From an uncultured Gammaproteobacteria bacterium (GTDB taxonomy: Bacteria; Patescibacteriota; Patescibacteriia; UBA9934; GWF2-40-263), in the NCBI GenBank assembly GCA_964359095.1, contig CAYHRJ010000001.1:1-62498 (forward strand): a stretch of 62,498 nt of DNA, given 5' to 3'. Both the position numbers and the translations under genes were made by a program. The notes under the pieces were generated by a model, which was not told the DNA's origin, searched no databases, and worked only from the letters and a program-made list of their open reading frames with translations. This document shows, piece by piece, positions 2,223-62,498 of the stretch. The stretch's first letter is position 1; each line of letters starts with the position of its first letter.

Positions 2223-2680
2223 TTGTCATCCCGACCGAGGAGTCCAACGACGAGCGGAGGGATCTCTAGACCGATGTCTATTCTGTCATCCCGACCGAAG
2301 GCCTGTTCTACAGGCCGAAGCGGAGGGATCCCTAAAGCGCTTCCGACAGATCTTGCCACTCCGGATTCTCCTGGTTGATCAACCATTCTTTCTTTTCCCT
2401 CCTCCACTTCTTCAGTTGCTTCTCACGTTCGATCGCTTCCAAAATGTCACCACAGCTCTCCGCATAGACAAGGTTCGTACAGTTGTATTTGGTCGTGAAA
2501 CCAGGAACCAATTTCTGCTGATGTTCAAAAGAGCGACGTTGAATATTATTCGTCACTCCGATATATAAAACAGTGTGCGAAGGGTTGGTCATGATGTAGA
2601 CGAAATATTCACGATCGCTCATAAGACACTCGAGATCCCTCGGCTTCGCTCCCAGAGGTCGCTCCGCTCGGGATGACAAA
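2223..2680 (-). mobile_element. TIR-bounded 458-bp GIY-YIG cassette, copy 1
   Basis: Starts TTGTCATCCCGACCGAGG and ends GCTCCGCTCGGGATGACAAA, the approximate reverse complement. By eye it is identical to 2696-3153. Confidence 0.6.
2332..2622 (-). CDS. GIY-YIG nuclease family protein (UPF0213-like), 96 aa, copy 1
   Basis: MSDREYFVYIMTNPSHTVLYIGVTNNIQRRSFEHQQ... carries the GIY...YIG...R..EH motifs. The internal ATG at 2622 is taken as the start. The longer 182-aa ORF reads through the repeat. Confidence 0.85.
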   Translation of the reverse strand: MSDREYFVYIMTNPSHTVLYIGVTNNIQRRSFEHQQKLVPGFTTKYNCTNLVYAESCGDILEAIEREKQLKKWRREKKEWLINQENPEWQDLSEAL

Positions 2681-2695
2681 TGGAGGAACCTCAAT

Positions 2696-3153
2696 TTGTC
2701 ATCCCGACCGAGGAGTCCAACGACGAGCGGAGGGATCTCTAGACCGATGTCTATTCTGTCATCCCGACCGAAGGCCTGTTCTACAGGCCGAAGCGGAGGG
2801 ATCCCTAAAGCGCTTCCGACAGATCTTGCCACTCCGGATTCTCCTGGTTGATCAACCATTCTTTCTTTTCCCTCCTCCACTTCTTCAGTTGCTTCTCACG
2901 TTCGATCGCTTCCAAAATGTCACCACAGCTCTCCGCATAGACAAGGTTCGTACAGTTGTATTTGGTCGTGAAACCAGGAACCAATTTCTGCTGATGTTCA
3001 AAAGAGCGACGTTGAATATTATTCGTCACTCCGATATATAAAACAGTGTGCGAAGGGTTGGTCATGATGTAGACGAAATATTCACGATCGCTCATAAGAC
3101 ACTCGAGATCCCTCGGCTTCGCTCCCAGAGGTCGCTCCGCTCGGGATGACAAA
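2696..3153 (-). mobile_element. TIR-bounded 458-bp GIY-YIG cassette, copy 2
   Basis: Direct repeat of 2223-2680 after the 15-bp spacer tggaggaacctcaat. It ends 4 nt before the stop codon of the beta-CASP gene. Confidence 0.6.
2805..3095 (-). CDS. GIY-YIG nuclease family protein, 96 aa, copy 2
   Basis: The translation is identical to copy 1. Confidence 0.85.
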   Translation of the reverse strand: MSDREYFVYIMTNPSHTVLYIGVTNNIQRRSFEHQQKLVPGFTTKYNCTNLVYAESCGDILEAIEREKQLKKWRREKKEWLINQENPEWQDLSEAL

Positions 3154-3157
3154 ACAG

Positions 3158-6507: not shown

Positions 6508-6598
6508 CGAACGCAGGCTCCCACCGTCGCTTCCGCCGTCGCCAAGGCTATGGCGGACAAGAAAGCTACGGTGGGCAGGAAAGCCTGCGGCTACCTCA
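6508..6598. repeat. 91-bp imperfect palindromic element (PE-A), intergenic copy
   Basis: 88/91 identical to 8056-8146. The arms caggct/agcctg, cccaccgt/acggtggg and tccgcc/ggcgga can pair. Confidence 0.85.
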
Positions 6599-7671: not shown

Positions 7672-9237
7672 TTACACCACGCTTCCTCCAAACTCTGCGA
7701 GTAGTTCTTGCACGGCTGCCTCCTCTGGTCTCTTGGACTGGATGGCTTTGATCTTCATCCTCCTTCCCAAAACTCTTTCAAACACATCCTCGATGGTCTT
7801 TCTGTTTTTATCCTGATTCACGGTTTGAACGTACAGGTCATATTCAAACCCAAGTTCTACTTTGTCGTCCACTACACCACGCACTTCACACGATTGCATA
7901 AACAAAGGTAGAGACGCGTTGCACGACTTGATCTGTTCATAGACCTGCGGCCATTTTTCTTTGACATCTTCGATGCTGATGACGGGAATTGTGTCGAAGA
8001 CTGTTTCGGATGTGTCATTTTGATGGAGCACGGGGACAGGAACCACCTCTTCAATCGAACCCAGGCTCCCACCTTCGCTTCCGCCGTCGCCAAGGCTATG
8101 GCGGACAAGAAAGCTACGGTGGGCAGGAAAGCCTGGGGCTACCTCAATAGTCTCAACTCGACTCGAATCAACCTCCTGTTTCTGAAAATCATTTTTTGTT
8201 TCTTGTCTTACTCCGCAAATTCTGATAATAGAGAGCTCCACAGGAAGCTGTGGGATATGTTCTGAACGAATCAATCGCTCGGCGGCAAGAAGTTCCTCAA
8301 TCGCTCGGCAGAGGAACACAGGGTCGAATGATGTTTCTTTTTGAGAGACCGACTCCAGTAACCGATCACGTAACCAAGAGGTCGTGTCTGCGAGAAACTG
8401 ATGAAGATCGACGCCTTGATCAAGATATGTGTTCAACAATGCAATGGAACCTGAGGCGTCGAGCCTCCCCAGTGCACCAACAAACTCCTCGACCAATACC
8501 AACTGTGTCGCGGGCAAAACAAGCGATGCTTCTTTCATGGTGATCTGTTTCTCCCCAAGCGCTAAAACTTGTCCAAGCAGGGACTCCGCGTCGCGCGCAC
8601 AGCCTCCACTGTGTCTGGCAATCGCTTGAAGAACGTCGACGTCCACCTTCACGCCTTCCTCTTTTACAATTCCCTCCATTCGACGCACCAGTTCCTCAGA
8701 TGAAATTTTTTTAAAATCAAAACGCGCACAGCGACTGATGATCGTCTCAGGAACTTTGTGAATCTCTGTTGTGGCAAGAATAAAAAGCGCGTGCTCAGGT
8801 GGTTCTTCCAAGGTTTTCAGAAGCGCGTTAAACGCGGAACCAGAAAGCATGTGAACTTCGTCAATGATGTAGATCTTTTTTTTGAGCGAGCTCGGAGCAA
8901 AACGAACCGACTGAATGATATTCTCTCGCACATGCTCCACGTCTGTGTGGGAAGCTGCATCGATCTCAAACACATCGAGTGCTGTTCCAGACATAACCTG
9001 CTTACAGGCGGTACAGGCATTGCACGGCTCATTTTTTTTTGGATTCAAACAATTCACGAGTTTCGCTAACAATCGCGCGAGTGTGGTTTTACCAACACCA
9101 CGCGGACCCGTAAACAAATAAGCGTGAGTCAAGGACTCAGAGCCAAATTGATTTTGAAGGGTTTTTACGACGTGGTTTTGCCCACTCACCTCTTCAAATG
9201 TTGTTGGTCGATAGATGCGATAAATCGCTTTGGACAT
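7672..9237 (-). CDS. dnaX: DNA polymerase III subunit gamma/tau
   Basis: GPRGVGKTT Walker A, a CNACTAC zinc module, DEVHMLS and the SRC motif. It carries an in-frame PE-A repeat. Confidence 0.9.
   Translation of the reverse strand: MSKAIYRIYRPTTFEEVSGQNHVVKTLQNQFGSESLTHAYLFTGPRGVGKTTLARLLAKLVNCLNPKKNEPCNACTACKQVMSGTALDVFEIDAASHTDVEHVRENIIQSVRFAPSSLKKKIYIIDEVHMLSGSAFNALLKTLEEPPEHALFILATTEIHKVPETIISRCARFDFKKISSEELVRRMEGIVKEEGVKVDVDVLQAIARHSGGCARDAESLLGQVLALGEKQITMKEASLVLPATQLVLVEEFVGALGRLDASGSIALLNTYLDQGVDLHQFLADTTSWLRDRLLESVSQKETSFDPVFLCRAIEELLAAERLIRSEHIPQLPVELSIIRICGVRQETKNDFQKQEVDSSRVETIEVAPGFPAHRSFLVRHSLGDGGSEGGSLGSIEEVVPVPVLHQNDTSETVFDTIPVISIEDVKEKWPQVYEQIKSCNASLPLFMQSCEVRGVVDDKVELGFEYDLYVQTVNQDKNRKTIEDVFERVLGRRMKIKAIQSKRPEEAAVQELLAEFGGSVV
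8056..8146. repeat. PE-A palindromic element, in-frame copy inside dnaX
   Basis: 88/91 identical to 6508-6598. It is translated as APGFPAHRSFLVRHSLGDGGSEGGSLGS. Confidence 0.85.
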
Positions 9238-9240
9238 ATT

Positions 9241-9320
9241 GGGGAGGTTGTAGGTAGTAGGTTTTAGGTGGTAGGAGGAATTCGAAATTGGATTCCTACA
9301 ACCTACTGCCTAAAACCTAA
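9241..9320. repeat. TAGG-rich intercistronic hairpin (PE-D) upstream of dnaX
   Basis: Contains the exact 18-mer TAGGTTTTAGGTGGTAGG (9258-9275), shared with 19039-19056 and 46385-46402. The right arm is attcctacaacctactgcctaaaacc. Confidence 0.8.
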
Positions 9321-9943
9321 TGGCTTATTCGTTCCACGGCAGCCCAGCCACACGCCCCTCCTGCTGGAACCAGAATGACGACCTCGTCTCCTGGGATTCC
9401 TTTGAAGTAGGACACGCTCGCCGCAAGCACGTTATACACGTCCTCCCCGCACATCACAACCGGCACCTGTGTGGAAGCATCGACGGCGAGCCTTCCCACC
9501 AAACGGGTGCGTGCGATCGGCGCAATTTGCTTGAAGACACTCGTGCCGTCTGAACGAATGACGAGTTTCAACATGTCTCCTTCGACGAGCTTAGATTTTG
9601 AAGCGTAATTTTCTGGCACGGCATAGCGTGCACCATCGGCACCGACCATGGCTTGCCCATCAAACACGCCCTCCAACACTCGAGATCCCGCCGTAATCTC
9701 GAGCTCGGCTTCTGTCCGTTTTTTGTTGGATACAAAGTCAACCATCTGTCGCGTTGCACGCGTGGTATCGCCTTCTTCGAGCAGTTGAATAACATGATTC
9801 ATGCTATCTCGCACAGCCTTCAACATCTGCAGCGCCAAACGACCACGGACTTCACCATGCTCCGCGCGATTGGCATGAAGCGAGACATCAGGCTCCACTT
9901 CAAATGTCTCTTCTTCAATTTCTTCATCCGAAAATGTGTACAT
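9317..9943 (-). CDS. Hypothetical protein (acidic N-terminus)
   Basis: 208-aa ORF, tightly packed between dnaX and the ATPase gene. No motif recognised. Confidence 0.6.
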   Translation of the reverse strand: MYTFSDEEIEEETFEVEPDVSLHANRAEHGEVRGRLALQMLKAVRDSMNHVIQLLEEGDTTRATRQMVDFVSNKKRTEAELEITAGSRVLEGVFDGQAMVGADGARYAVPENYASKSKLVEGDMLKLVIRSDGTSVFKQIAPIARTRLVGRLAVDASTQVPVVMCGEDVYNVLAASVSYFKGIPGDEVVILVPAGGACGWAAVERISH

Positions 9944-16507: not shown

Positions 16508-16549
16508 AACAGACTATACACGGATAATCGAAATTGGTAAGTCTGTCAA

Positions 16550-16575
16550 GACACGTCGCTCGCGAGCGACGTGTC
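16550..16575. repeat. Perfect 26-nt TCGCGA-centred palindrome (PE-B)
   Basis: gacacgtcgctcgcgagcgacgtgtc, flanked by the direct repeat tcaaga. It abuts the stop codon at 16574-16576. Confidence 0.9.
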
Positions 16576-17146
16576 AAGAGTAGTGTCCGTATCCTCGATC
16601 TTCTTTTCCTCCACCAAAGAGAGCCATGGCGATCACCGGCAACAGAACCCAAGCGGCTCGAGCGATGTCGCTCAAAAATAATGCTCGCGTGAATTGAGAA
16701 AGGACATCCACAAGATCGGTAGGAAAAAAAGAAAGAGTCACACTAACAAGCAGTCCCACGTGAAGAAACGAAAAAATCATGACTTGCCAAAGTTTGCCCT
16801 GCGTCGCGCCATGACCAAGAGTGCGCATGAGAGCTGAATGTGAGAGAAAAAAGAATAAGAGGATGAAGATACCAAGAAACACAGTGACGCGCAACGCAAA
16901 CGCATCGTTCACAGAAATGTTCGCACTGAACTCCGACACAAACGGAATGTAATTCACGATCGCAAGCGACATATAGATCGAGACAAGAATCACGATGATG
17001 CGATCACGACCAAGCGAGATGCCGTAGATGAGAGACGCGACAATAAAAAAGATCAGGATAAAGAGATCCCAGGTTGGATTGAGCCAGTTGATGCTCTCAA
17101 GTGCCCTCTGCGCAGCAGCTTGATCGAAGATGGCGGTTTGTAGCAT
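16574..17146 (-). CDS. Integral membrane protein, unknown function
   Basis: 190 aa with 5-6 hydrophobic helices. Confidence 0.6.
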   Translation of the reverse strand: MLQTAIFDQAAAQRALESINWLNPTWDLFILIFFIVASLIYGISLGRDRIIVILVSIYMSLAIVNYIPFVSEFSANISVNDAFALRVTVFLGIFILLFFFLSHSALMRTLGHGATQGKLWQVMIFSFLHVGLLVSVTLSFFPTDLVDVLSQFTRALFLSDIARAAWVLLPVIAMALFGGGKEDRGYGHYS

Positions 17147-17805: not shown

Positions 17806-18170
17806 CACCAAAACAAAACCCGCCGTTGAGTGGCGGATGTTGTTTGGACCCGGGCTCGCTGAATTTACAGCTGGTGGACCACGTCGTTCGCGAACGACGT
17901 GGTGGACCCGACGGGATTTGCACGGCGAGGACAGTGAGTAGAGAGACTGATTTTTCTCAGTTTCTCTCGAACGACGCAGCCGTCCTGTTCGAACGAAGTG
18001 AGAACAACACCCGTATTGGTCGGTGCTAACTCGACTAGGGTTACCAATTACCCTCACGGGCCCATGAGCCCGGGAAAAATAAAATCCCCCAACGTCAAAG
18101 ACCAAATGGCCTTTGTATTGAGGGAGTTTATTGTTAGCACCGACACTGTGAGGGCAATGCCCTAGTCGTA
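17806..18170 (-). ncRNA. Candidate structured noncoding RNA or long cis-regulatory leader, class unresolved
   Basis: No credible ORF. A TTGACA at 18204-18199 with TCTACT/TACTGT -10 candidates lies upstream. An intrinsic terminator (ccgcc-N7-ggcgg plus a T-run) lies at 17836-17806. The region has many local hairpins and crossing long-range complementarities. Confidence 0.35.
17878..17903. repeat. Perfect 26-nt TCGCGA-centred palindrome (PE-B) inside the ncRNA candidate
   Basis: accacgtcgttcgcgaacgacgtggt. The 20-nt core is flanked by an 8-bp direct repeat, ggtggacc on the plus strand. Confidence 0.9.
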
Positions 18171-19004: not shown

Positions 19005-19032
19005 ACAGACAGTGGGGATGTCTTAGTTATGA

Positions 19033-19112
19033 AGGTAGTAGGTTTTAGGTGGTAGGTGTTAGGTTTTGGAAAATTCCGAAAACCTACAACCTAATCACTA
19101 AACCCTACAACC
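19033..19112. repeat. TAGG-rich intercistronic hairpin (PE-D)
   Basis: Exact 18-mer TAGGTTTTAGGTGGTAGG at 19039-19056. The right arm aaacctacaacctaa...ccctacaacc overlaps the 3' end of rsmH. Confidence 0.8.
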
Positions 19113-19974
19113 TTGTTTTCTCGGCAACGCGCAGTTTGGCTGAGCGAGCGCGAGGGTTCTTTCTCACCTCCTCTTGGGAAGGAGTGATCACGTGCTTGTT
19201 CACGAGGCTCAGATCGGCACGAGACTTGAGGAACCGTTTCACCAGGCGATCTTCCAGAGAATGGAAGCTGATGATGGCGATTCTCCCGCCTGGCACAAGC
19301 AGGTCGACGAAGTCTGGAAGGGCTCGCTCGAGCTCTCCGAGTTCGTCGTTCACCGTGATCCTGAGTGCTTGGAACACTCGGGTTGCACCGTGCGTTCTCC
19401 CCTGTCTTCTAAGCGCCTTTGAAAGACACTCGACAAGGGAAGCCGTCGTTTCGATCCGTGCGACTTTTCGACACTCGACGATCGCCTCTGCTGCCTGCGC
19501 AGCTTTTGGTTCCTCACCATAGAGTCGGAACACACGTGCGAGTTCCTCTTGCGACCACTCGTTCACGATCACCTCGGCGGTGAGCATTTGTGATTGGTCG
19601 AAGCGCATATCAAGCGGACCGTCGTTCACAAACGAGAATCCTCGAGTCGGATCGTCCACATGAACGGACGAGAATCCGAGATCCAGGAGAATTCCGTTCA
19701 CACGATCGAAACCGTGATGAGCGGCGTGAGTCTTTGCGTGTGAGTAACTATCGCGCACCAACACGACAGCATCACCAAACCCCGAAAGCCGCTCACGCGC
19801 AGTCTCGAGATTTTTGGCATCACGATCAATGCCGAGCAGACGGCCGCCAGGGAAGACACGCGCAAGCAATGCTTGTGCATGTCCCCCCAGCCCCACTGTG
19901 CCGTCTATCAAAAAGTCGTTCGGCTCCGGCTTGAGGTTTTCAATCACCTCGGTAAGGAGGACAGGTTGGTGCAT
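19105..19974 (-). CDS. rsmH: 16S rRNA (cytosine1402-N4)-methyltransferase
   Basis: MHQPVLLTEV...DGTVGLGGH...DLGFSS...SFHSLEDR motifs. Start set at the internal ATG at 19974. Confidence 0.9.
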   Translation of the reverse strand: MHQPVLLTEVIENLKPEPNDFLIDGTVGLGGHAQALLARVFPGGRLLGIDRDAKNLETARERLSGFGDAVVLVRDSYSHAKTHAAHHGFDRVNGILLDLGFSSVHVDDPTRGFSFVNDGPLDMRFDQSQMLTAEVIVNEWSQEELARVFRLYGEEPKAAQAAEAIVECRKVARIETTASLVECLSKALRRQGRTHGATRVFQALRITVNDELGELERALPDFVDLLVPGGRIAIISFHSLEDRLVKRFLKSRADLSLVNKHVITPSQEEVRKNPRARSAKLRVAEKTRL

Positions 19975-21926: not shown

Positions 21927-23294
21927 TCATGTTCCAATCGACTGTTTTCCTCTCAACGTCCTGTGATACTTCACTGCAAACCTGTGCGCTTCATCACGCG
22001 CGCGCTGGAACAGTTCTTTGCCTCGTGAGATGACGCGTTGTAGATCTTGATTGTCATGATCATACACGAGTCGATCTTGCTTGCGATCAAATCCTTTTGC
22101 GATACCAATAATCGGCACTTCCACGCCAAGTTCGTCCAAAACATCCTGCACGCGATTCACCTGCGGCTCTCCTCCGTCGATGATCATGAGCTCAGGAAGC
22201 TCCCAGGCTCCCACTGCACTCCCACCCCCCTTGATCCCCCCTCCGCCTTCGCCAAGGCTTCGGCGGACAGGTCGGGCAGGGGGGAAGGCTCTTTTCAAGC
22301 GTCTTCTCATCACTTCCTCCATGCACGCCACGTCGTTGGCTCCCTTGACCGTCTTGATCTTGAATTTGCGATAGAGGTTCTTCGCGGGTTTCCCTTCCAC
22401 AAACACCACCATCGATCCCACGGCAGATGTTCCCGAGATGTTACTGATGTCGTAGCCCTCGATGCGTCCCATGAGATTGACGGTGCCGTCTGTCTCCTTC
22501 TTGGTAAACGGCAGCTCGTAATCTTCTCGAGAGATGAGCGCGATGTCTTGGATGTGCGTCAGCGCGCTCAGCCGACGAACAAGCACAGCAGCTTTCTCAA
22601 ACTGAAGTTTCTTGGCGGCGAGCGTCATCTCTTTTTTGAGCTCGCGCTCGAGCTTCGCCTTCTTCCCATCAAAAAATAAAATCAGCTGTCGAATCACATG
22701 TCGATAATCCGTTTTGCTAATCGTCCCAGTACACACTCCTGGGCATTTCCCGATCTGCGCATTGAAGCATGGACGACGCTGTCCAGGCTCACACGTGGAC
22801 CAAGGAATACCGCGACGGATCATGTCCAAGGCCATTTTCAAAGAACGACTGCTGGTATACGGACCGAAGACGCGCAAAAAATTTTTTCCGGCGGAGCCTG
22901 ATCCAGCCTTTAGGCGGGACTTTCCCAACGTGAGTTCATGTCCACGAATCAACTGCGGACGCGGATAGGGCTCGTCCGTGATCACCAGATACAAAAACGT
23001 CTTATCATCGCGGCCAAGGATATTGTACTTGGGTCGCCGCGCTTGGATCTCGTTGGCCTCCAAGACCAATGCCTCGATCACAGTTGGCGTCTGGTGATAA
23101 TCGATTCTGGCAATCTGTGCGACCATCTCACCGATTCTGTCATCGTGAGCTTTTACAAAATACGAACCCACTCGTCGTTTCAGGGACGTGGCTTTGCCAA
23201 TATAAAGCAGATGACCTGCACGATCGTAATAAAAATACACACCCGGGCCATCAGGAAGTTTACCGTTTTTCAATTTGATTTCAGCTGGAATCAT
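21927..23294 (-). CDS. uvrC: Excinuclease ABC subunit C (short form, no C-terminal (HhH)2 domain)
   Basis: GIY-YIG domain (GVYFYYDRAGHLLYIGKATSLKRRV), a UVR-like helix (QFEKAAVLVRRL) and an endonuclease domain ending AHRFAVKYHR. Start set at the ATG at 23294. Contains an in-frame PE-A copy. Confidence 0.85.
   Translation of the reverse strand: MIPAEIKLKNGKLPDGPGVYFYYDRAGHLLYIGKATSLKRRVGSYFVKAHDDRIGEMVAQIARIDYHQTPTVIEALVLEANEIQARRPKYNILGRDDKTFLYLVITDEPYPRPQLIRGHELTLGKSRLKAGSGSAGKNFLRVFGPYTSSRSLKMALDMIRRGIPWSTCEPGQRRPCFNAQIGKCPGVCTGTISKTDYRHVIRQLILFFDGKKAKLERELKKEMTLAAKKLQFEKAAVLVRRLSALTHIQDIALISREDYELPFTKKETDGTVNLMGRIEGYDISNISGTSAVGSMVVFVEGKPAKNLYRKFKIKTVKGANDVACMEEVMRRRLKRAFPPARPVRRSLGEGGGGIKGGGSAVGAWELPELMIIDGGEPQVNRVQDVLDELGVEVPIIGIAKGFDRKQDRLVYDHDNQDLQRVISRGKELFQRARDEAHRFAVKYHRTLRGKQSIGT
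22202..22290. repeat. PE-A palindromic element, diverged in-frame copy inside uvrC
   Basis: Shares cccaggctcccac...tccgccttcgccaaggcttcggcggacagg...gggcagg with 6508-6598. It is translated as RPVRRSLGEGGGGIKGGGSAVGAWE. Confidence 0.75.
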
Positions 23295-23330
23295 ACTCAA
23301 AATCCTATCATGACTCTTGCCACGTCGCTC

Positions 23331-23373
23331 GCCACGATCGTTCGCGAACGACGTGGCTCGCGAACGACGTGGC
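23331..23373. repeat. PE-B palindrome (imperfect) with tandem half-site
   Basis: gccacgatcgttcgcgaacgacgtggc followed by a second tcgcgaacgacgtggc. It lies in the divergent uvrC/cupredoxin intergenic region. Confidence 0.8.
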
Positions 23374-23410
23374 TTGCGATTCAAGAACATGCCTGCTACC
23401 CTTCCTGCAT

Positions 23411-46371: not shown

Positions 46372-46455
46372 AGGGAGTAGGTGATAGGTTTTAGGTGGTA
46401 GGGATCGGAAGCCGGATTTCGAACTCCGGACTTCGACTATAACCTACAACCTACA
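46372..46455. repeat. TAGG-rich intercistronic hairpin (PE-D) between ftsW and murG
   Basis: Exact 18-mer TAGGTTTTAGGTGGTAGG at 46385-46402. The right arm is tataacctacaacctaca. Confidence 0.8.
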
Positions 46456-49651: not shown

Positions 49652-49814
49652 TAGACCTGTTACCAAATAAGCTTATAGCCGAAAAATGTCAGATTCGAGC
49701 GAAAGTCGTTTGAGGAAACCGAAGAATAGCCTTAGCTATTTTGAGGTTTTCGAAAATGGCTTGCAGCCGAATATGACGTTTTGCAGGCATAAGATTATTT
49801 GGCAACAGGTCTAG
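49652..49814. repeat. 163-nt long imperfect hairpin (MITE-like or structured RNA)
   Basis: Terminal arms tagacctgttaccaaataagcttat and ataagattatttggcaacaggtcta, with further internal pairing. Confidence 0.75.
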
Positions 49815-49837: not shown

Positions 49838-50155
49838 TCAATCTAAGCTAGCTGTACAGCTCGCTGTGTGTCCCAATAGTGATAAAAAAACAGTCTCTTC
49901 GTGAAGATGACGATACACGACTCGAAAATCACCTGTTACGTTGATACTCCGATAGGCGCGATATTCTCCGGAAAGTTTGTGATTATTCAGGAGTGGATGA
50001 AACGGATCAAGCGTAAACAACGTTAAACGTTCCTTCACCTGCCCCTGAAGCTTTTTTGATAAAAAAAAATTGAGTCGTCCAAAAAATTGTTCGCGAATCG
50101 ATTCTGGAAATTTTTTGAGTTGCGTTTCAAACTTTTTATGAAACCTCACTTGCAT
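49838..50155 (-). CDS. RelE/YafQ-family type II toxin, C-terminus frameshifted in an A7/T7 run
   Basis: DPFHPLLNNHKLSGEYRAYRSINVTGDFRVVY is a RelE/YafQ-like core. The canonical ending ITIGTHSELYS-stop is readable in another frame downstream of the homopolymer at 49884-49890. Confidence 0.7.
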   Translation of the reverse strand: MQVRFHKKFETQLKKFPESIREQFFGRLNFFLSKKLQGQVKERLTLFTLDPFHPLLNNHKLSGEYRAYRSINVTGDFRVVYRHLHEETVFLSLLGHTASCTASLD

Positions 50156-55450: not shown

Positions 55451-55976
55451 GCGAAAACGAAGAGAGAATCGTGTCAAAAATGGCGTCCTCCTGTTCAAAC
55501 GTAATCACGAGAAGCTGTGACTTGTTTTCGATAACCATAAGACGTGCAGGTGAATCACTTGTCCCGTCGCCATACAGCGACAATGTTTGCTGACCACCGC
55601 GCCCATCAATCTGCTGCGCAGCTTCACCGTTTGGATAAAAAAATCCAACATGGCTCGTCAGCCACGTATGCGCAGACTCCTCGCTCTGCACCCCACGAAT
55701 GGATAAGACGTTTGTCCCCTCTCCAGCGACAAAGACAATCTCGTCCTCGGGTCCGGCAAGATACGCGGTCTGATCCTCAAAATTCAAAGCGTAGACGGAT
55801 ACTCCGTCAGGAACAGTAAACTCGTAACCGAAACGCGTGTTTTGATACAAAGAACCTTCCACAAAACTCGGTTCGGCAGGGATGGTCATCTCCTCACTGA
55901 TCGCAACAGGTTGTCCACATCCTCCCAAGAGGACCGACGCGACCAATAGGATCAAGATGCTGGATCGCCTTAACAT
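55440..55976 (-). CDS. Putative lipoprotein, unknown function
   Basis: Start set at ATG 55976 (MLRRSSILILLVASVLLGGCGQ lipobox). The upstream part of the ORF crosses palindromic repeats. Confidence 0.55.
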   Translation of the reverse strand: MLRRSSILILLVASVLLGGCGQPVAISEEMTIPAEPSFVEGSLYQNTRFGYEFTVPDGVSVYALNFEDQTAYLAGPEDEIVFVAGEGTNVLSIRGVQSEESAHTWLTSHVGFFYPNGEAAQQIDGRGGQQTLSLYGDGTSDSPARLMVIENKSQLLVITFEQEDAIFDTILSSFSLTL

Positions 55977-56008: not shown

Positions 56009-56069
56009 TTGACCCCTCCCTTCGCGAAGGGAGGGGTTGACCCCGCTTTTCGCGAAAGGCGGGGTTGAC
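56009..56069. repeat. Two tandem TCGCGA-centred palindromes (PE-B) separated by TTGAC
   Basis: ttgac-ccctcccttcgcgaagggaggg-g-ttgac-cccgcttttcgcgaaaggcggg-g-ttgac. Confidence 0.85.
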
Positions 56070-60146: not shown

Positions 60147-60169
60147 GATTCCCTCCTGGTGTGTAGATG

Positions 60170-60195
60170 ATCCCCCCTTTCGCGAAAGGGGGGAT
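60170..60195. repeat. Perfect 26-nt TCGCGA-centred palindrome (PE-B)
   Basis: atcccccctttcgcgaaaggggggat, 24 nt upstream of the ABC exporter start. Confidence 0.9.
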
Positions 60196-60403
60196 GAAAT
60201 GAACGAAAAACGGCCCCACCTCAGCGGGGCGTTTCAAGTTTTTTGCTTAAACCTTGAGACTCCACGCCGAAACAAAATAGATGTCCGAGACTGGAAAACC
60301 AGTATCAGCGGCCATGCGCATGTAGATTTGCGTTGTGATTGTCATAGCGCGTTTCGGCGTTAAAATATTAGTGAGGATTTTATATCAGAGAAACTGAATC
60401 GCG

Positions 60404-61568: not shown

Positions 61569-61642
61569 AGGGGAGTAGTGAAGCGGTATCACGACTCTCT
61601 CCAAAAGAGTTATCCCGGGTTCGATCCCCGGCTCCCCTGCCA
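61569..61642 (+). tRNA. tRNA-Trp (anticodon CCA), CCA end encoded
   Basis: Acceptor aggggag/ctcccct, discriminator G, anticodon loop cTCCAaa and T arm ccggg-ttcgatc-cccgg. Confidence 0.88.
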
Positions 61643-61668
61643 CGTCGGTCGCGACCGACGTGGCCTGC
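61637..61668. repeat. PE-B palindrome overlapping the 3' end of tRNA-Trp; left copy of a 32-bp direct repeat
   Basis: ctgccacgtcggtcgcgaccgacgtggcctgc is identical to 62467-62498. The 26-nt perfect palindrome gccacg...cgtggc is at 61639-61664. Confidence 0.9.
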
Positions 61669-61937
61669 CACTCAGTTCGAGTAGTGGGCCTAAAGGTCGT
61701 GCCAGCGTGACAATAGAAAAGCGTCCTCTGTAGGACGTTTTTCTATTTCTGGTGTAGCGACGTGGCCTGCCACTCATGTTAAACTGAGTGATAAATCACG
61801 TCGTTTGTGGGCGACGTTTGTTTATGTGGTATTTTTACATTCTCCAAAGTCAAAAGAACCGTGATAGAGTGAACTCAAGATTCAAGATCTGACCATGGCA
61901 TGCAATTAGGAGCAAACTTCTTAATCCAATTTCTGTT

Positions 61938-62341: not shown

Positions 62342-62498
62342 CTAACCTTCAAAGGCTTCAACGACCTCAAGACGAAGTTCGCGGAGCTGGCCAAGACCTG
62401 GAATGGTTTCGTCCGCCCTCTTTAGAGATTCATCGCGACCAAAGTTCGCACGTCGCTTGCGAAGGCCTGCCACGTCGGTCGCGACCGACGTGGCCTGC
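62342..62498 (-). CDS. 3' end of an unidentified ORF entering from the right window edge
   Basis: The frame is open from the window edge to a TAG at 62344-62342 (...GLRKRRANFGRDESLKRADETIPGLGQLRELRLEVVEAFEG). It would read through a PE-B palindrome. The family was not recognised. Confidence 0.3.
   Translation of the reverse strand, partial: QATSVATDVAGLRKRRANFGRDESLKRADETIPGLGQLRELRLEVVEAFEG
62467..62498. repeat. PE-B palindrome; right copy of the 32-bp direct repeat (truncated by the window end)
   Basis: Identical to 61637-61668. Confidence 0.9.

Follow-up and report, generated by a model that had tools for sequence, protein, structure and literature searches.

The 62,498-bp stretch of DNA analyzed here (the window) is a whole contig of Candidatus Uhrbacteria, a lineage of the Patescibacteria or candidate phyla radiation (CPR), and it carries members of a CPR-wide family of 24-bp perfect palindromes centered on TCGCGA. 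These palindromes are flanked by short, class-specific target duplications and show a preference for CCA-containing sites in transfer RNA (tRNA) genes. In the window, they are insertions that have duplicated 3-5 bp of their target. We consider it probable that the palindromes are very small mobile elements of Patescibacteria, distinguished by their 24-bp length, their target duplication, their preference for tRNA CCA sequences and their GIY-YIG partners. The likeliest agents of their mobilization, judging from gene neighborhoods, would be class-matched minimal GIY-YIG nucleases. The nearest relatives of the window's proteins are found in Uhrbacteria metagenome-assembled genomes (MAGs), and assemblies from Hainich groundwater match the window at 99-100% identity. 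Its gene content includes a dcw cell-division cluster, uvrA, uvrC, cysS, dnaX, superoxide dismutase (SOD) and phosphoglucose isomerase (PGI) genes, and six tRNA genes.

The original prediction described a family of TCGCGA-centered palindromes in this DNA, and our scan recovers its coordinates and places the family above simulated background. Six perfect palindromes are present, with arms of exactly 13 bp and TCGCGA at every center; only four further perfect palindromes in the window have arms that reach 8 bp, and their centers are different. In 200 first-order Markov simulations of the window, no palindrome reached an arm length of 12 bp (the longest arm was 11). At least eight perfect sites had been proposed; six are perfect, whereas the copy at 56041-56064 has a mismatch at the ninth position and the site at 23316-23376 is a compound of two copies. 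The TCGCGA hexamer is itself not enriched in the window (43 observed against 34 +/- 6.5 expected), and half-sites are scarce outside the palindromes, which speaks against a restriction or uptake word. Rfam likewise returned no family for the palindromes at gathering thresholds across the whole window, and none at E <= 1 around site B.

To define the unit, we combined the window with a scan of one genome per species using the class-1 core ACGTCGNTCGCGANCGACGT, which gave at least 119 loci, and with 62 class-2 loci sampled from metagenomes. The unit is a 24-bp perfect palindrome, formed of two 12-bp arms joined at the invariant TCGCGA, with an abutting direct repeat of 3-5 bp. Two arm classes are distinguished. 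Class 1, with arms of the CCACGTCG type, reads CCACGTCGN-TCGCGA-N'CGACGTGG, duplicates CNNG, and has flanks that lean to TGG...CCA; class 2, with C-rich arms, reads CCCCTCCCT-TCGCGA-AGGGAGGGG and variants, and duplicates T-N-N-A or T-N-A. A class-specific target consensus is found for both, and the preferred targets resemble TGG-NNNN-CCA. The predicted single-stranded DNA fold is a stable hairpin with an 11-bp stem and a CGCG loop (-11.5 to -14.5 kcal/mol).

Position statistics across copies separate the element from its target. Positions 1-12 from the center are complementary, positions 14-15 are anti-complementary (7-12% against 25% by chance), and the bases at -16 to -13 on the left and +13 to +16 on the right are identical in about 70% of copies. 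The covariation of the arms around a constant center, noted in the original prediction, is borne out: positions +-4, +-11 and +-12 differ from copy to copy, also between copies of this genome, and stay complementary in almost every copy. An arm length of exactly 13 bp is seen in 72 of 113 copies among the matches listed, and the 13th pair (C..G or T..A) joins the first and last bases of the duplication, whose middle two bases are almost never self-complementary. An alternative parse, in which the element is 26 bp long and only 2 bp are duplicated, or in which the repeat is 8 bp long and internally symmetrical, was dropped for the 24-bp core: in tRNAs with an A discriminator, the 13th pair proves to be part of the duplicated target.

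With this parse, and among the 97 unique class-1 copies from the window and the 119 other genomes in the matches listed, an exact repeat abutting the 24-bp core measures 4 bp in 45 (swapped-flank expectation 3.4), 5 bp in 9 (expectation 0.3) and 3 bp in 5 (expectation 1.4), for a total of 59 copies against about 5 expected. Class 2 shows a duplication of 3-4 bp in 30 of 57 copies. The original prediction had read the flanks as 5-8-bp direct repeats resembling target-site duplications. The duplications are genuine, but their true length is 3-5 bp, the longer repeats being a duplication together with flank bases that mimic the ends of the element.

Relatives at 81-88% protein identity, retrieved via neighboring window proteins, provide orthologous empty sites holding a single copy of the repeat for four loci in the window. 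Site A, in the minus-strand reading, is filled in the window as CTCTTG-24 bp-CTTGACAG and empty in locus L135 (88%) as CTCTTGACGA, with a single CTTG. The compound site at 23316-23376 places 57 extra bp after CAAG in the window, while in L125 and L126 the element is absent and CAAG (minus-strand reading) occurs once. At site D the window reads TTTCA-24 bp-TCATCTAC and the empty site in L140 reads TTTCATCTTG, and at site C the window's ATTGA-first element-TTGA-second element-TTGACA corresponds to a single ATTGACA in the same syntenic relative. Empty orthologous sites with one repeat copy demonstrate insertion with target-site duplication, as had been predicted. Strains at 98-100% identity share every copy, and site A is also filled in the 98% relatives L121-L123.

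The compound site parses exactly as one element within the center of another, with a duplication of CTCG (CGAG on the other strand), and a nested in-center insertion with duplication CGAG is also seen in the Doudnabacteria locus L076. We infer that each insertion recreates a TGG-NNNN-CCA-like junction, which would give rise to tandem and nested copies. Copies lie in long open frames less often (31%) than random positions do (70%). Three other candidate comparisons were set aside. Locus L130, considered as an empty site for site B, has a tRNA ending in TCCACCA and no TCGCGA element, but has a different hairpin there. A comparison of L088 with the window at tRNA-Gln shows presence and absence of a 24-bp element between conserved flanks, though without a clean duplication. 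A search for a full-length insertion sequence bounded by separated half-sites returned only noise and decayed copies.

Among the matches listed, class-1 copies come overwhelmingly from Patescibacteria (Uhr-, Morani-, Peregrini-, Peri-, Doudna-, Kerfeld-, Wirth-, Woese- and Saccharibacteria, and Minisyncoccota), and the few chance matches in high-G+C genomes are short-armed. The same arm sequence recurs in deeply divergent lineages. Several MAGs labeled 'uncultured Gammaproteobacteria' appear to be mislabeled CPR genomes, including that of L118, which aligns to the window. The viral contigs searched, 2.9 million in all, hold one match, which speaks against a phage origin.

The relationship between the palindromes and tRNA genes is close and keeps a fixed geometry. 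In 22 of the 119 copies among the matches listed, the CCA of a tRNA forms the first three bases of the palindrome, always in identical register, and these insertions span Ser, Trp, Lys, Met, Leu, Pro, Ile, Asp and Tyr tRNAs; three further copies abut tRNA 5' ends. In the CCA-end cases, the duplication consists of the 4-5 nt immediately preceding the CCA and is itself followed by another CCA, as in the tRNA-Trp of the window, which reads CCTG-(CCA...TGG)-CCTG-CCA, with the element in parentheses. Because its preferred targets resemble TGG-NNNN-CCA, the element frequently inserts at the 3'-terminal CCA of a tRNA gene and in doing so provides it with a fresh CCA. A third type of palindrome, CCAGGCAACTGCCGCGGTGTC-12 nt-GACACCGCGGCAACTGCCTGG followed by CCTG CCA, lies at the 3' end of tRNA-Trp in L180 (reverse strand, about 2536-2600), and extends the CCA-end insertion rule beyond TCGCGA-centered elements.

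Class-2 copies occur repeatedly within the anticodon loop of tRNA-Trp fragments (GGTC-TCCA-element-TCCA-AAACC). Loci where they split tRNA-Trp at the anticodon TCCA include L172 (431-1010), L180 (reverse strand, 1742-2616), L193, L198, L171 and L176, and the split gene is followed by a GIY-YIG gene of the alpha subfamily described below, and then by either a new tRNA-Trp 5' half or an entire replacement gene. As such splitting recurs, orphan 5' halves accumulate upstream in arrays. Elsewhere, 80-170 nt beyond a complete tRNA-Trp in L096 (4979-5160), L100 (5290-5570) and L065 (6280-6580), the 3' portion of tRNA-Trp is present a second time, together with a class-1 palindrome, which is evidence for further small insertions at this tRNA. 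Tandem arrays with periods of 29 nt and 25 nt are present between the tRNA and a GIY-YIG gene of the beta subfamily in L070 (4203-4300) and L212 (1345-1445); each unit joins a right half-element to the duplication and CCA flank.

At about 20 loci, a search of all retrieved DNA with tblastn places GIY-YIG open reading frames (ORFs) of about 85 aa within 27-160 bp of TCGCGA palindromes. The DNA adjoining the anticodon-loop copies of L180 and L172 encodes a GIY-YIG protein of about 83 aa. The palindrome-linked proteins form two sister subfamilies. Beta proteins (N-terminus MWYFYVLQS..YFYKGST) are encoded downstream of tRNA CCA ends (Trp, Ser, Asp), and their nearest palindrome is class 1 in 11 of 14 cases, while alpha proteins (N-terminus M.FVYLL.S..FYIG.T) are encoded upstream of tRNA-Trp, with class 2 nearest in 9 of 11 palindrome-linked cases. 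The exceptions to this pairing are loci where one tRNA-Trp is flanked by palindromes of both classes. In a reciprocal test that took beta proteins detected by homology as its starting point, tRNA-Trp, a class-1 palindrome, CCTG CCA and the beta gene were recovered in both of two independent contexts, one per protein, in Uhrbacteria and Peribacteraceae; the Uhrbacteria case has an alpha gene upstream as well. This class-specific association, like the targeting of tRNA CCA sequences and the spread across the CPR, was absent from the original prediction.

These proteins consist of a GIY-YIG domain alone (Pfam PF01541, E = 9e-14), in which Y5, Y17, G19, R27, H31 and E63 are invariant, so that the catalytic Tyr, the Tyr-x-Gly motif, Arg, His and Glu are kept. 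The sequence of the beta protein matches Protein Data Bank entries 1ZG2 and 1YWL. An AlphaFold model of the GIY-YIG protein (predicted local distance difference test score 93.8) has Slx1-Slx4, UPF0213 BH0048 and plant HIGLE as its top Foldseek matches, and UvrC-type domains match it far less well. The window itself retains only a remnant of a beta gene, between copies E and E' at tRNA-Trp, and a half-element and a decayed palindrome precede it. E (61640-61663) and E' (62470-62493) are identical, each with CCTG on both sides, and bracket about 830 bp containing the dead gene. This unit resembles the attL and attR ends of a tiny integrated unit, and the same layout is found in L070 and L087. GIY-YIG ORFs have also been reported in non-intron insertions of CPR ribosomal RNA (rRNA) genes in a 2024 survey (PMC11270868), and these are possibly the same kind of cassette.

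A third GIY-YIG subfamily is present elsewhere in the window, where two tandem identical genes for minimal 95-aa proteins (2335-2622 and 2808-3095) lie within a 300-nt exact direct repeat at 2223-3157 (minus strand). The genes do not encode the C-terminal tail of the alpha and beta proteins, each is preceded by a GTCATCCCGAGCGGAGCGACC leader, and a 46-bp near-palindrome at 2665-2710 separates the two copies. This may be another pairing of a nuclease with a hairpin, unrelated to the TCGCGA palindromes.

Taken together, these features lead us to favor a model in which the autonomous partners would be cassettes at tRNA genes in related genomes, each comprising a palindrome and a gene for a Slx1/HIGLE-like GIY-YIG protein of about 85 aa, with the beta cassette paired with class 1 and the alpha cassette with class 2. 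The nuclease probably recognizes the palindrome as a duplex, an extruded cruciform or a hairpin, the latter two being suggested by its predicted fold, and probably makes a staggered cut in the target. The dispersed solo copies (7 of 9 in the window) would then be non-autonomous and moved in trans or, less likely, would represent what a deletion between two flanking palindromes left behind. The invariant center and near-perfect arm symmetry suggest either a hairpin or resolution-type intermediate that regenerates both arms from one, or template-switch correction of quasipalindromes to the same effect. More tentatively, and with less confidence than we place in mobility as such, the system could represent a new class of prokaryotic transposon, with a Slx1-like nuclease of about 85 aa and a bare, cruciform-forming 24-bp palindrome that would be the smallest mobile DNA described, homing to tRNA CCA motifs (the 3' end and the tRNA-Trp anticodon) across the CPR, its center and symmetry reflecting a hairpin or cruciform-resolution intermediate.

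Several observations weigh against this model. Solo copies make up about 76% of the retrieved copies (141 of 185 have neither a tRNA nor a GIY-YIG gene nearby), and the intact third-subfamily genes at 2335-3095 have no TCGCGA palindrome near them. GIY-YIG genes and palindromes may lie together at tRNA genes through a target common to both, and not because one depends on the other. Characterized GIY-YIG homing enzymes leave 2-nt 3' overhangs, from which a 4-bp duplication is not simply predicted. Finally, the same duplication lies on both sides of each palindrome at E, at E' and at both L070 copies, and the bracketing of a GIY-YIG segment by a unit of about 35 bp, in the manner of attL and attR, is not predicted by a simple transposon model.

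The prevalence of solo copies invites comparison with solo long terminal repeats (LTRs), and it is conceivable, if unlikely, that they are what remains of palindrome-GIY-palindrome cassettes after recombination between the palindromes. Two-palindrome cassettes do exist (E...E' in the window, L070 and L087), a collapsed cassette would retain its target duplication, and such a history avoids the difficulty of moving a 24-bp duplex. All alpha and beta genes seen, however, lie at tRNA genes, and none at the generic intergenic sites that hold most copies. No intermediate was found, such as a decayed GIY-YIG gene at a non-tRNA site, and 24 bp is a short substrate for recombination.

It is improbable that the palindromes are immobile hairpins of RNA or DNA selected by the host (terminators, 3'-end processing signals or stabilizing structures) and spread by local duplication. 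Such a role would fit the many copies found after tRNA 3' ends or stop codons, their stable predicted folds, the presence of the tRNA-Trp copy in several CPR classes, and the unrelated hairpin that pairs with the same tRNA end in L130. The palindromes are not simply terminators, since two window sites (site C and 23316-23376) lie between divergently transcribed genes and no U/T tract follows the palindromes, while canonical terminators with A/T tracts occur in the same genomes. Nor would host hairpins be expected to show exact flanking repeats with orthologous empty sites, nesting of one copy within another, or identical arm sequences across deeply divergent lineages.

The original prediction saw the nearest analogy in repetitive extragenic palindromic (REP) elements, which would be moved as single-stranded hairpins by a REP-associated tyrosine transposase (RAYT) or another IS200-type HUH (Y1) transposase. 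The resemblance is appreciable, as these too are short extragenic palindromes with compensatory arm changes, stable predicted DNA hairpins, and an under-representation in long open frames. IS200/IS605 elements and REPs, however, insert without target duplication, and REPs carry a conserved GTAG-type end that is recognized by RAYT. The TCGCGA palindromes have a target-site duplication, and end in CCA/TGG (or CCC/GGG) with no GTAG. The prediction had also stated that no Y1 transposase gene lies in the window, and a Pfam scan of the window's ORFs agrees, finding no Y1_Tnp domain or other HUH gene; in 1.43 Mb of related loci, a search with TnpA probes, which is a weak test, gave nothing beyond one marginal 30-aa match. 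The analogy fails on duplication and on ends, and we regard such a mechanism as very unlikely.

Least probable of all are dif- or att-like sites for a site-specific recombinase or dimeric regulator (arms of 10-11 bp around a 6-bp spacer): the layout does recall the 26-28-bp arm-spacer-arm organization of dif, lox and FRT-type sites, an identical 35-bp unit does bracket the GIY-YIG segment at tRNA-Trp, and the middle duplication bases do avoid self-complementarity, but the duplications vary within one genome (CAAG, TGGA, CTCG, TTGA, TGA, CCTG) as a fixed crossover core would not, two unrelated arm classes with variable arm positions are at odds with one sequence-specific binder, and no recombinase gene was found among the window proteins scanned.

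Table 1. TCGCGA palindromes and associated features in the window (1-based positions, forward strand).
Feature	Position	Strand	Description
Six perfect palindromes	16550-16575, 17878-17903, 56012-56037, 60170-60195, 61639-61664, 62469-62494		Perfect-palindrome scan
Site A, class 1	16547..16578	.	CAAG + ACACGTCGC-TCGCGA-GCGACGTGT (16551-16574) + CAAG; between the stop of a hypothetical gene (TGA 16574-16576, minus strand) and an extracytoplasmic function (ECF) sigma gene
Site B, class 1	17875..17906	.	TGGA + CCACGTCGT-TCGCGA-ACGACGTGG (17879-17902) + TGGA; first CCA on the minus strand is the 3' CCA of the tRNA-like gene
tRNA-like gene	17900..18105 (5' limit approximate)	-	Alignment to the L130 tRNA at 232-308; CCA end is the site B target
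Compound site	23316..23376	.	CTTG + outer class-1 element split centrally by an inner 25-bp element (23332-23356) + CTTG; inner element has its own duplication CTCG at 23328-23331 and 23357-23360; between divergent uvrC and cupredoxin-like genes
Site C, two tandem class-2 elements	56009..56068	.	Three TTGA copies around both elements; first CCCCTCCCT-TCGCGA-AGGGAGGGG (56013-56036), second CCCCGCTTT-TCGCGA-AAGGCGGGG (56041-56064, one mismatch); between divergent genes with starts at 55976 (minus) and 56181 (plus)
Site D, class 2	60168..60197	.	TGA + TCCCCCCTT-TCGCGA-AAGGGGGGA (60171-60194) + TGA; between SOD stop and ABC-transporter (ATP-binding cassette) start
tRNA-Trp	61569..61642	+	ARAGORN, Rfam; final 7 nt CCTG+CCA are the left duplication and the first 3 nt of element E
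Site E, class 1	61636..61670	.	CCTG + CCACGTCGG-TCGCGA-CCGACGTGG (61640-61663) + CCTG + displaced original CCA
Right half-element	61747..61762	.	GCGACGTGG + CCTG + CCA; truncated second copy; full orthologous copy in L047
Decayed palindrome	61797..61818	.	CACGTCGTTTGTGGGCGACGT; 5 nt upstream of the GIY-YIG pseudogene start
Beta GIY-YIG remnant	61824..61892	+	MWYFYILQSQKN...; truncated after 22 codons; tblastn with beta proteins
Decayed left half	62450..62465	.	ACGTCGC-TTGCGA-AGG; abuts E'
Site E', class 1	62466..62498	.	CCTG + CCACGTCGG-TCGCGA-CCGACGTGG (62470-62493) + CCTG; identical to E over 35 nt

Two of the tabulated loci retain a history of decay. In the tRNA-like gene at site B, the T-arm region is broken by about 90 nt containing decayed palindrome copies, and neither ARAGORN nor Rfam calls a tRNA there in the window; its ortholog in L130 is an ARAGORN tRNA with anticodon TGA. 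The window gene is either a pseudogene or carries an unusual intervening sequence. The arrangement of tRNA-Trp with element E is repeated in L026, L047, L058, L065, L087, L203 and L212, and degenerate palindrome copies likewise precede beta genes in L041, L110 and L026. The beta remnant matches over 14 aa at 78% identity (E = 6.5e-06 against a 1-kb segment); the N-terminal motif is invariant in the family.

The contig terminates inside palindrome E', and an independent assembly, L137, starts at the same base (its position 1), so TCGCGA palindrome repeats evidently break metagenome assemblies. Only a third assembly, the sister L136, reads through E' (at 1657), and it has CCTG CCA on the far side.

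The window contains other repeats. AGGTTTTAGGTGGTAGG-like repeats (583-613, 9245-9275, 19026-19070 and 46372-46402, with inverted copies at 9295-9326 and 19083-19113) are found immediately 5' to the starts of genes on the minus strand (dnaX, an ftsL-like gene and murG), and on the mRNA they form C/U-rich leaders, CCUACCACCUAAAACCU. A 91-nt repeat at 6508-6598 and 8056-8146 is 97% identical between copies, one of them within the dnaX region, and holds a small palindrome, TCCGCCGTCGCCAAGGCTATGGCGGACA; its core is also found at 22242-22269. A 79-nt inverted repeat at 49652-49813 (75% complementary, with a 4-nt spacer) adjoins a ParE/YafQ-like toxin gene at 49838-50155.

If the link to the nucleases holds, the numerous bacterial minimal UPF0213/Slx1-like GIY-YIG proteins, for which no function is established, would gain a role as engines of tiny palindromic elements, and the lower size limit of mobile DNA would fall to 24 bp. 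Reduced CPR genomes, usually thought to be transposon-poor, would then carry an active repeat family that reshapes tRNA loci and intergenic DNA alike and breaks up and replaces tRNA-Trp genes. Annotation could also make use of the target rules of each class (CNNG or TNNA beside CCA) as markers. In the searchable literature on TCGCGA palindromes, on CPR repeats and miniature inverted-repeat transposable elements (MITEs), and on GIY-YIG proteins with tRNA or CPR, we found no description of the palindromes, their tRNA targeting or class-matched nucleases.

Comparison with known systems places these elements between several categories. They share with REP and REPIN elements a short, mostly extragenic and hairpin-capable palindromic form, compensatory stem changes, and an abundance of solo copies beside few repeat-flanked enzyme genes, but as perfect 24-bp palindromes with a 3-5-bp duplication, CCA/TGG ends and no GTAG they differ in structure, and the gene associated with them encodes a GIY-YIG nuclease, with no HUH gene found in the window ORFs scanned. 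Like MITEs, they have inverted terminal arms (12 bp), are non-coding, outnumber protein-coding relatives that share their ends, and have a target duplication of near-fixed length (mostly 4 bp in class 1 and 3-4 bp in class 2). Described bacterial MITEs are roughly 50-500 bp long, whereas the TCGCGA elements are several-fold shorter, and their arms abut with no internal sequence. Their outer two bases vary while the center is invariant, and in place of a DDE or other transposase parent, none of which was found, there are GIY-YIG cassettes bounded by or adjacent to palindromes.

The cassettes invite a second set of comparisons. Like elements that integrate at tRNA 3' ends, they insert at the 3' end and regenerate the gene, and duplicated tRNA-end sequences bracket the insert in L070, L087, L096, L100 and at E/E' in the window; in contrast to those elements, they have no integrase, their inserts range from 28 bp to about 0.8 kb, and the duplication is 3-5 bp plus the element's own CCA. 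They also resemble free-standing GIY-YIG homing genes, such as phage T4 seg and the ORFs of CPR rRNA insertions, in being small selfish genes in or beside a conserved RNA gene: in related genomes, GIY-YIG ORFs with intact catalytic residues lie in or beside conserved tRNA genes, the window having only its 22-codon remnant, and the insert at the tRNA-Trp anticodon carries a replacement part of the tRNA. Unlike I-TevI-type enzymes, however, the palindrome-linked proteins are about 85 aa long, have no separate DNA-binding domain, and are structurally nearer to Slx1 and HIGLE than to UvrC. Homing itself proceeds by break repair between alleles, with flanking homology and no duplication, whereas the palindromes occur at unrelated intergenic sites with short duplications.

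The beta protein finds its best matches, in sequence and fold alike, among Slx1-Slx4, HIGLE and UPF0213 proteins, and conserves the catalytic Tyr, Arg, His and Glu. Stand-alone Slx1-like GIY-YIG members in prokaryotes have been predicted to act in double-strand-break repair (PMC1564403). Proteins of this group have been described as repair or resolution factors; no partnership with a repeated palindrome, and no mobility of their genes at tRNA loci, has been described for them. Slx1-type enzymes cut branched or four-way DNA, a category that includes the cruciform formed when a palindrome extrudes.

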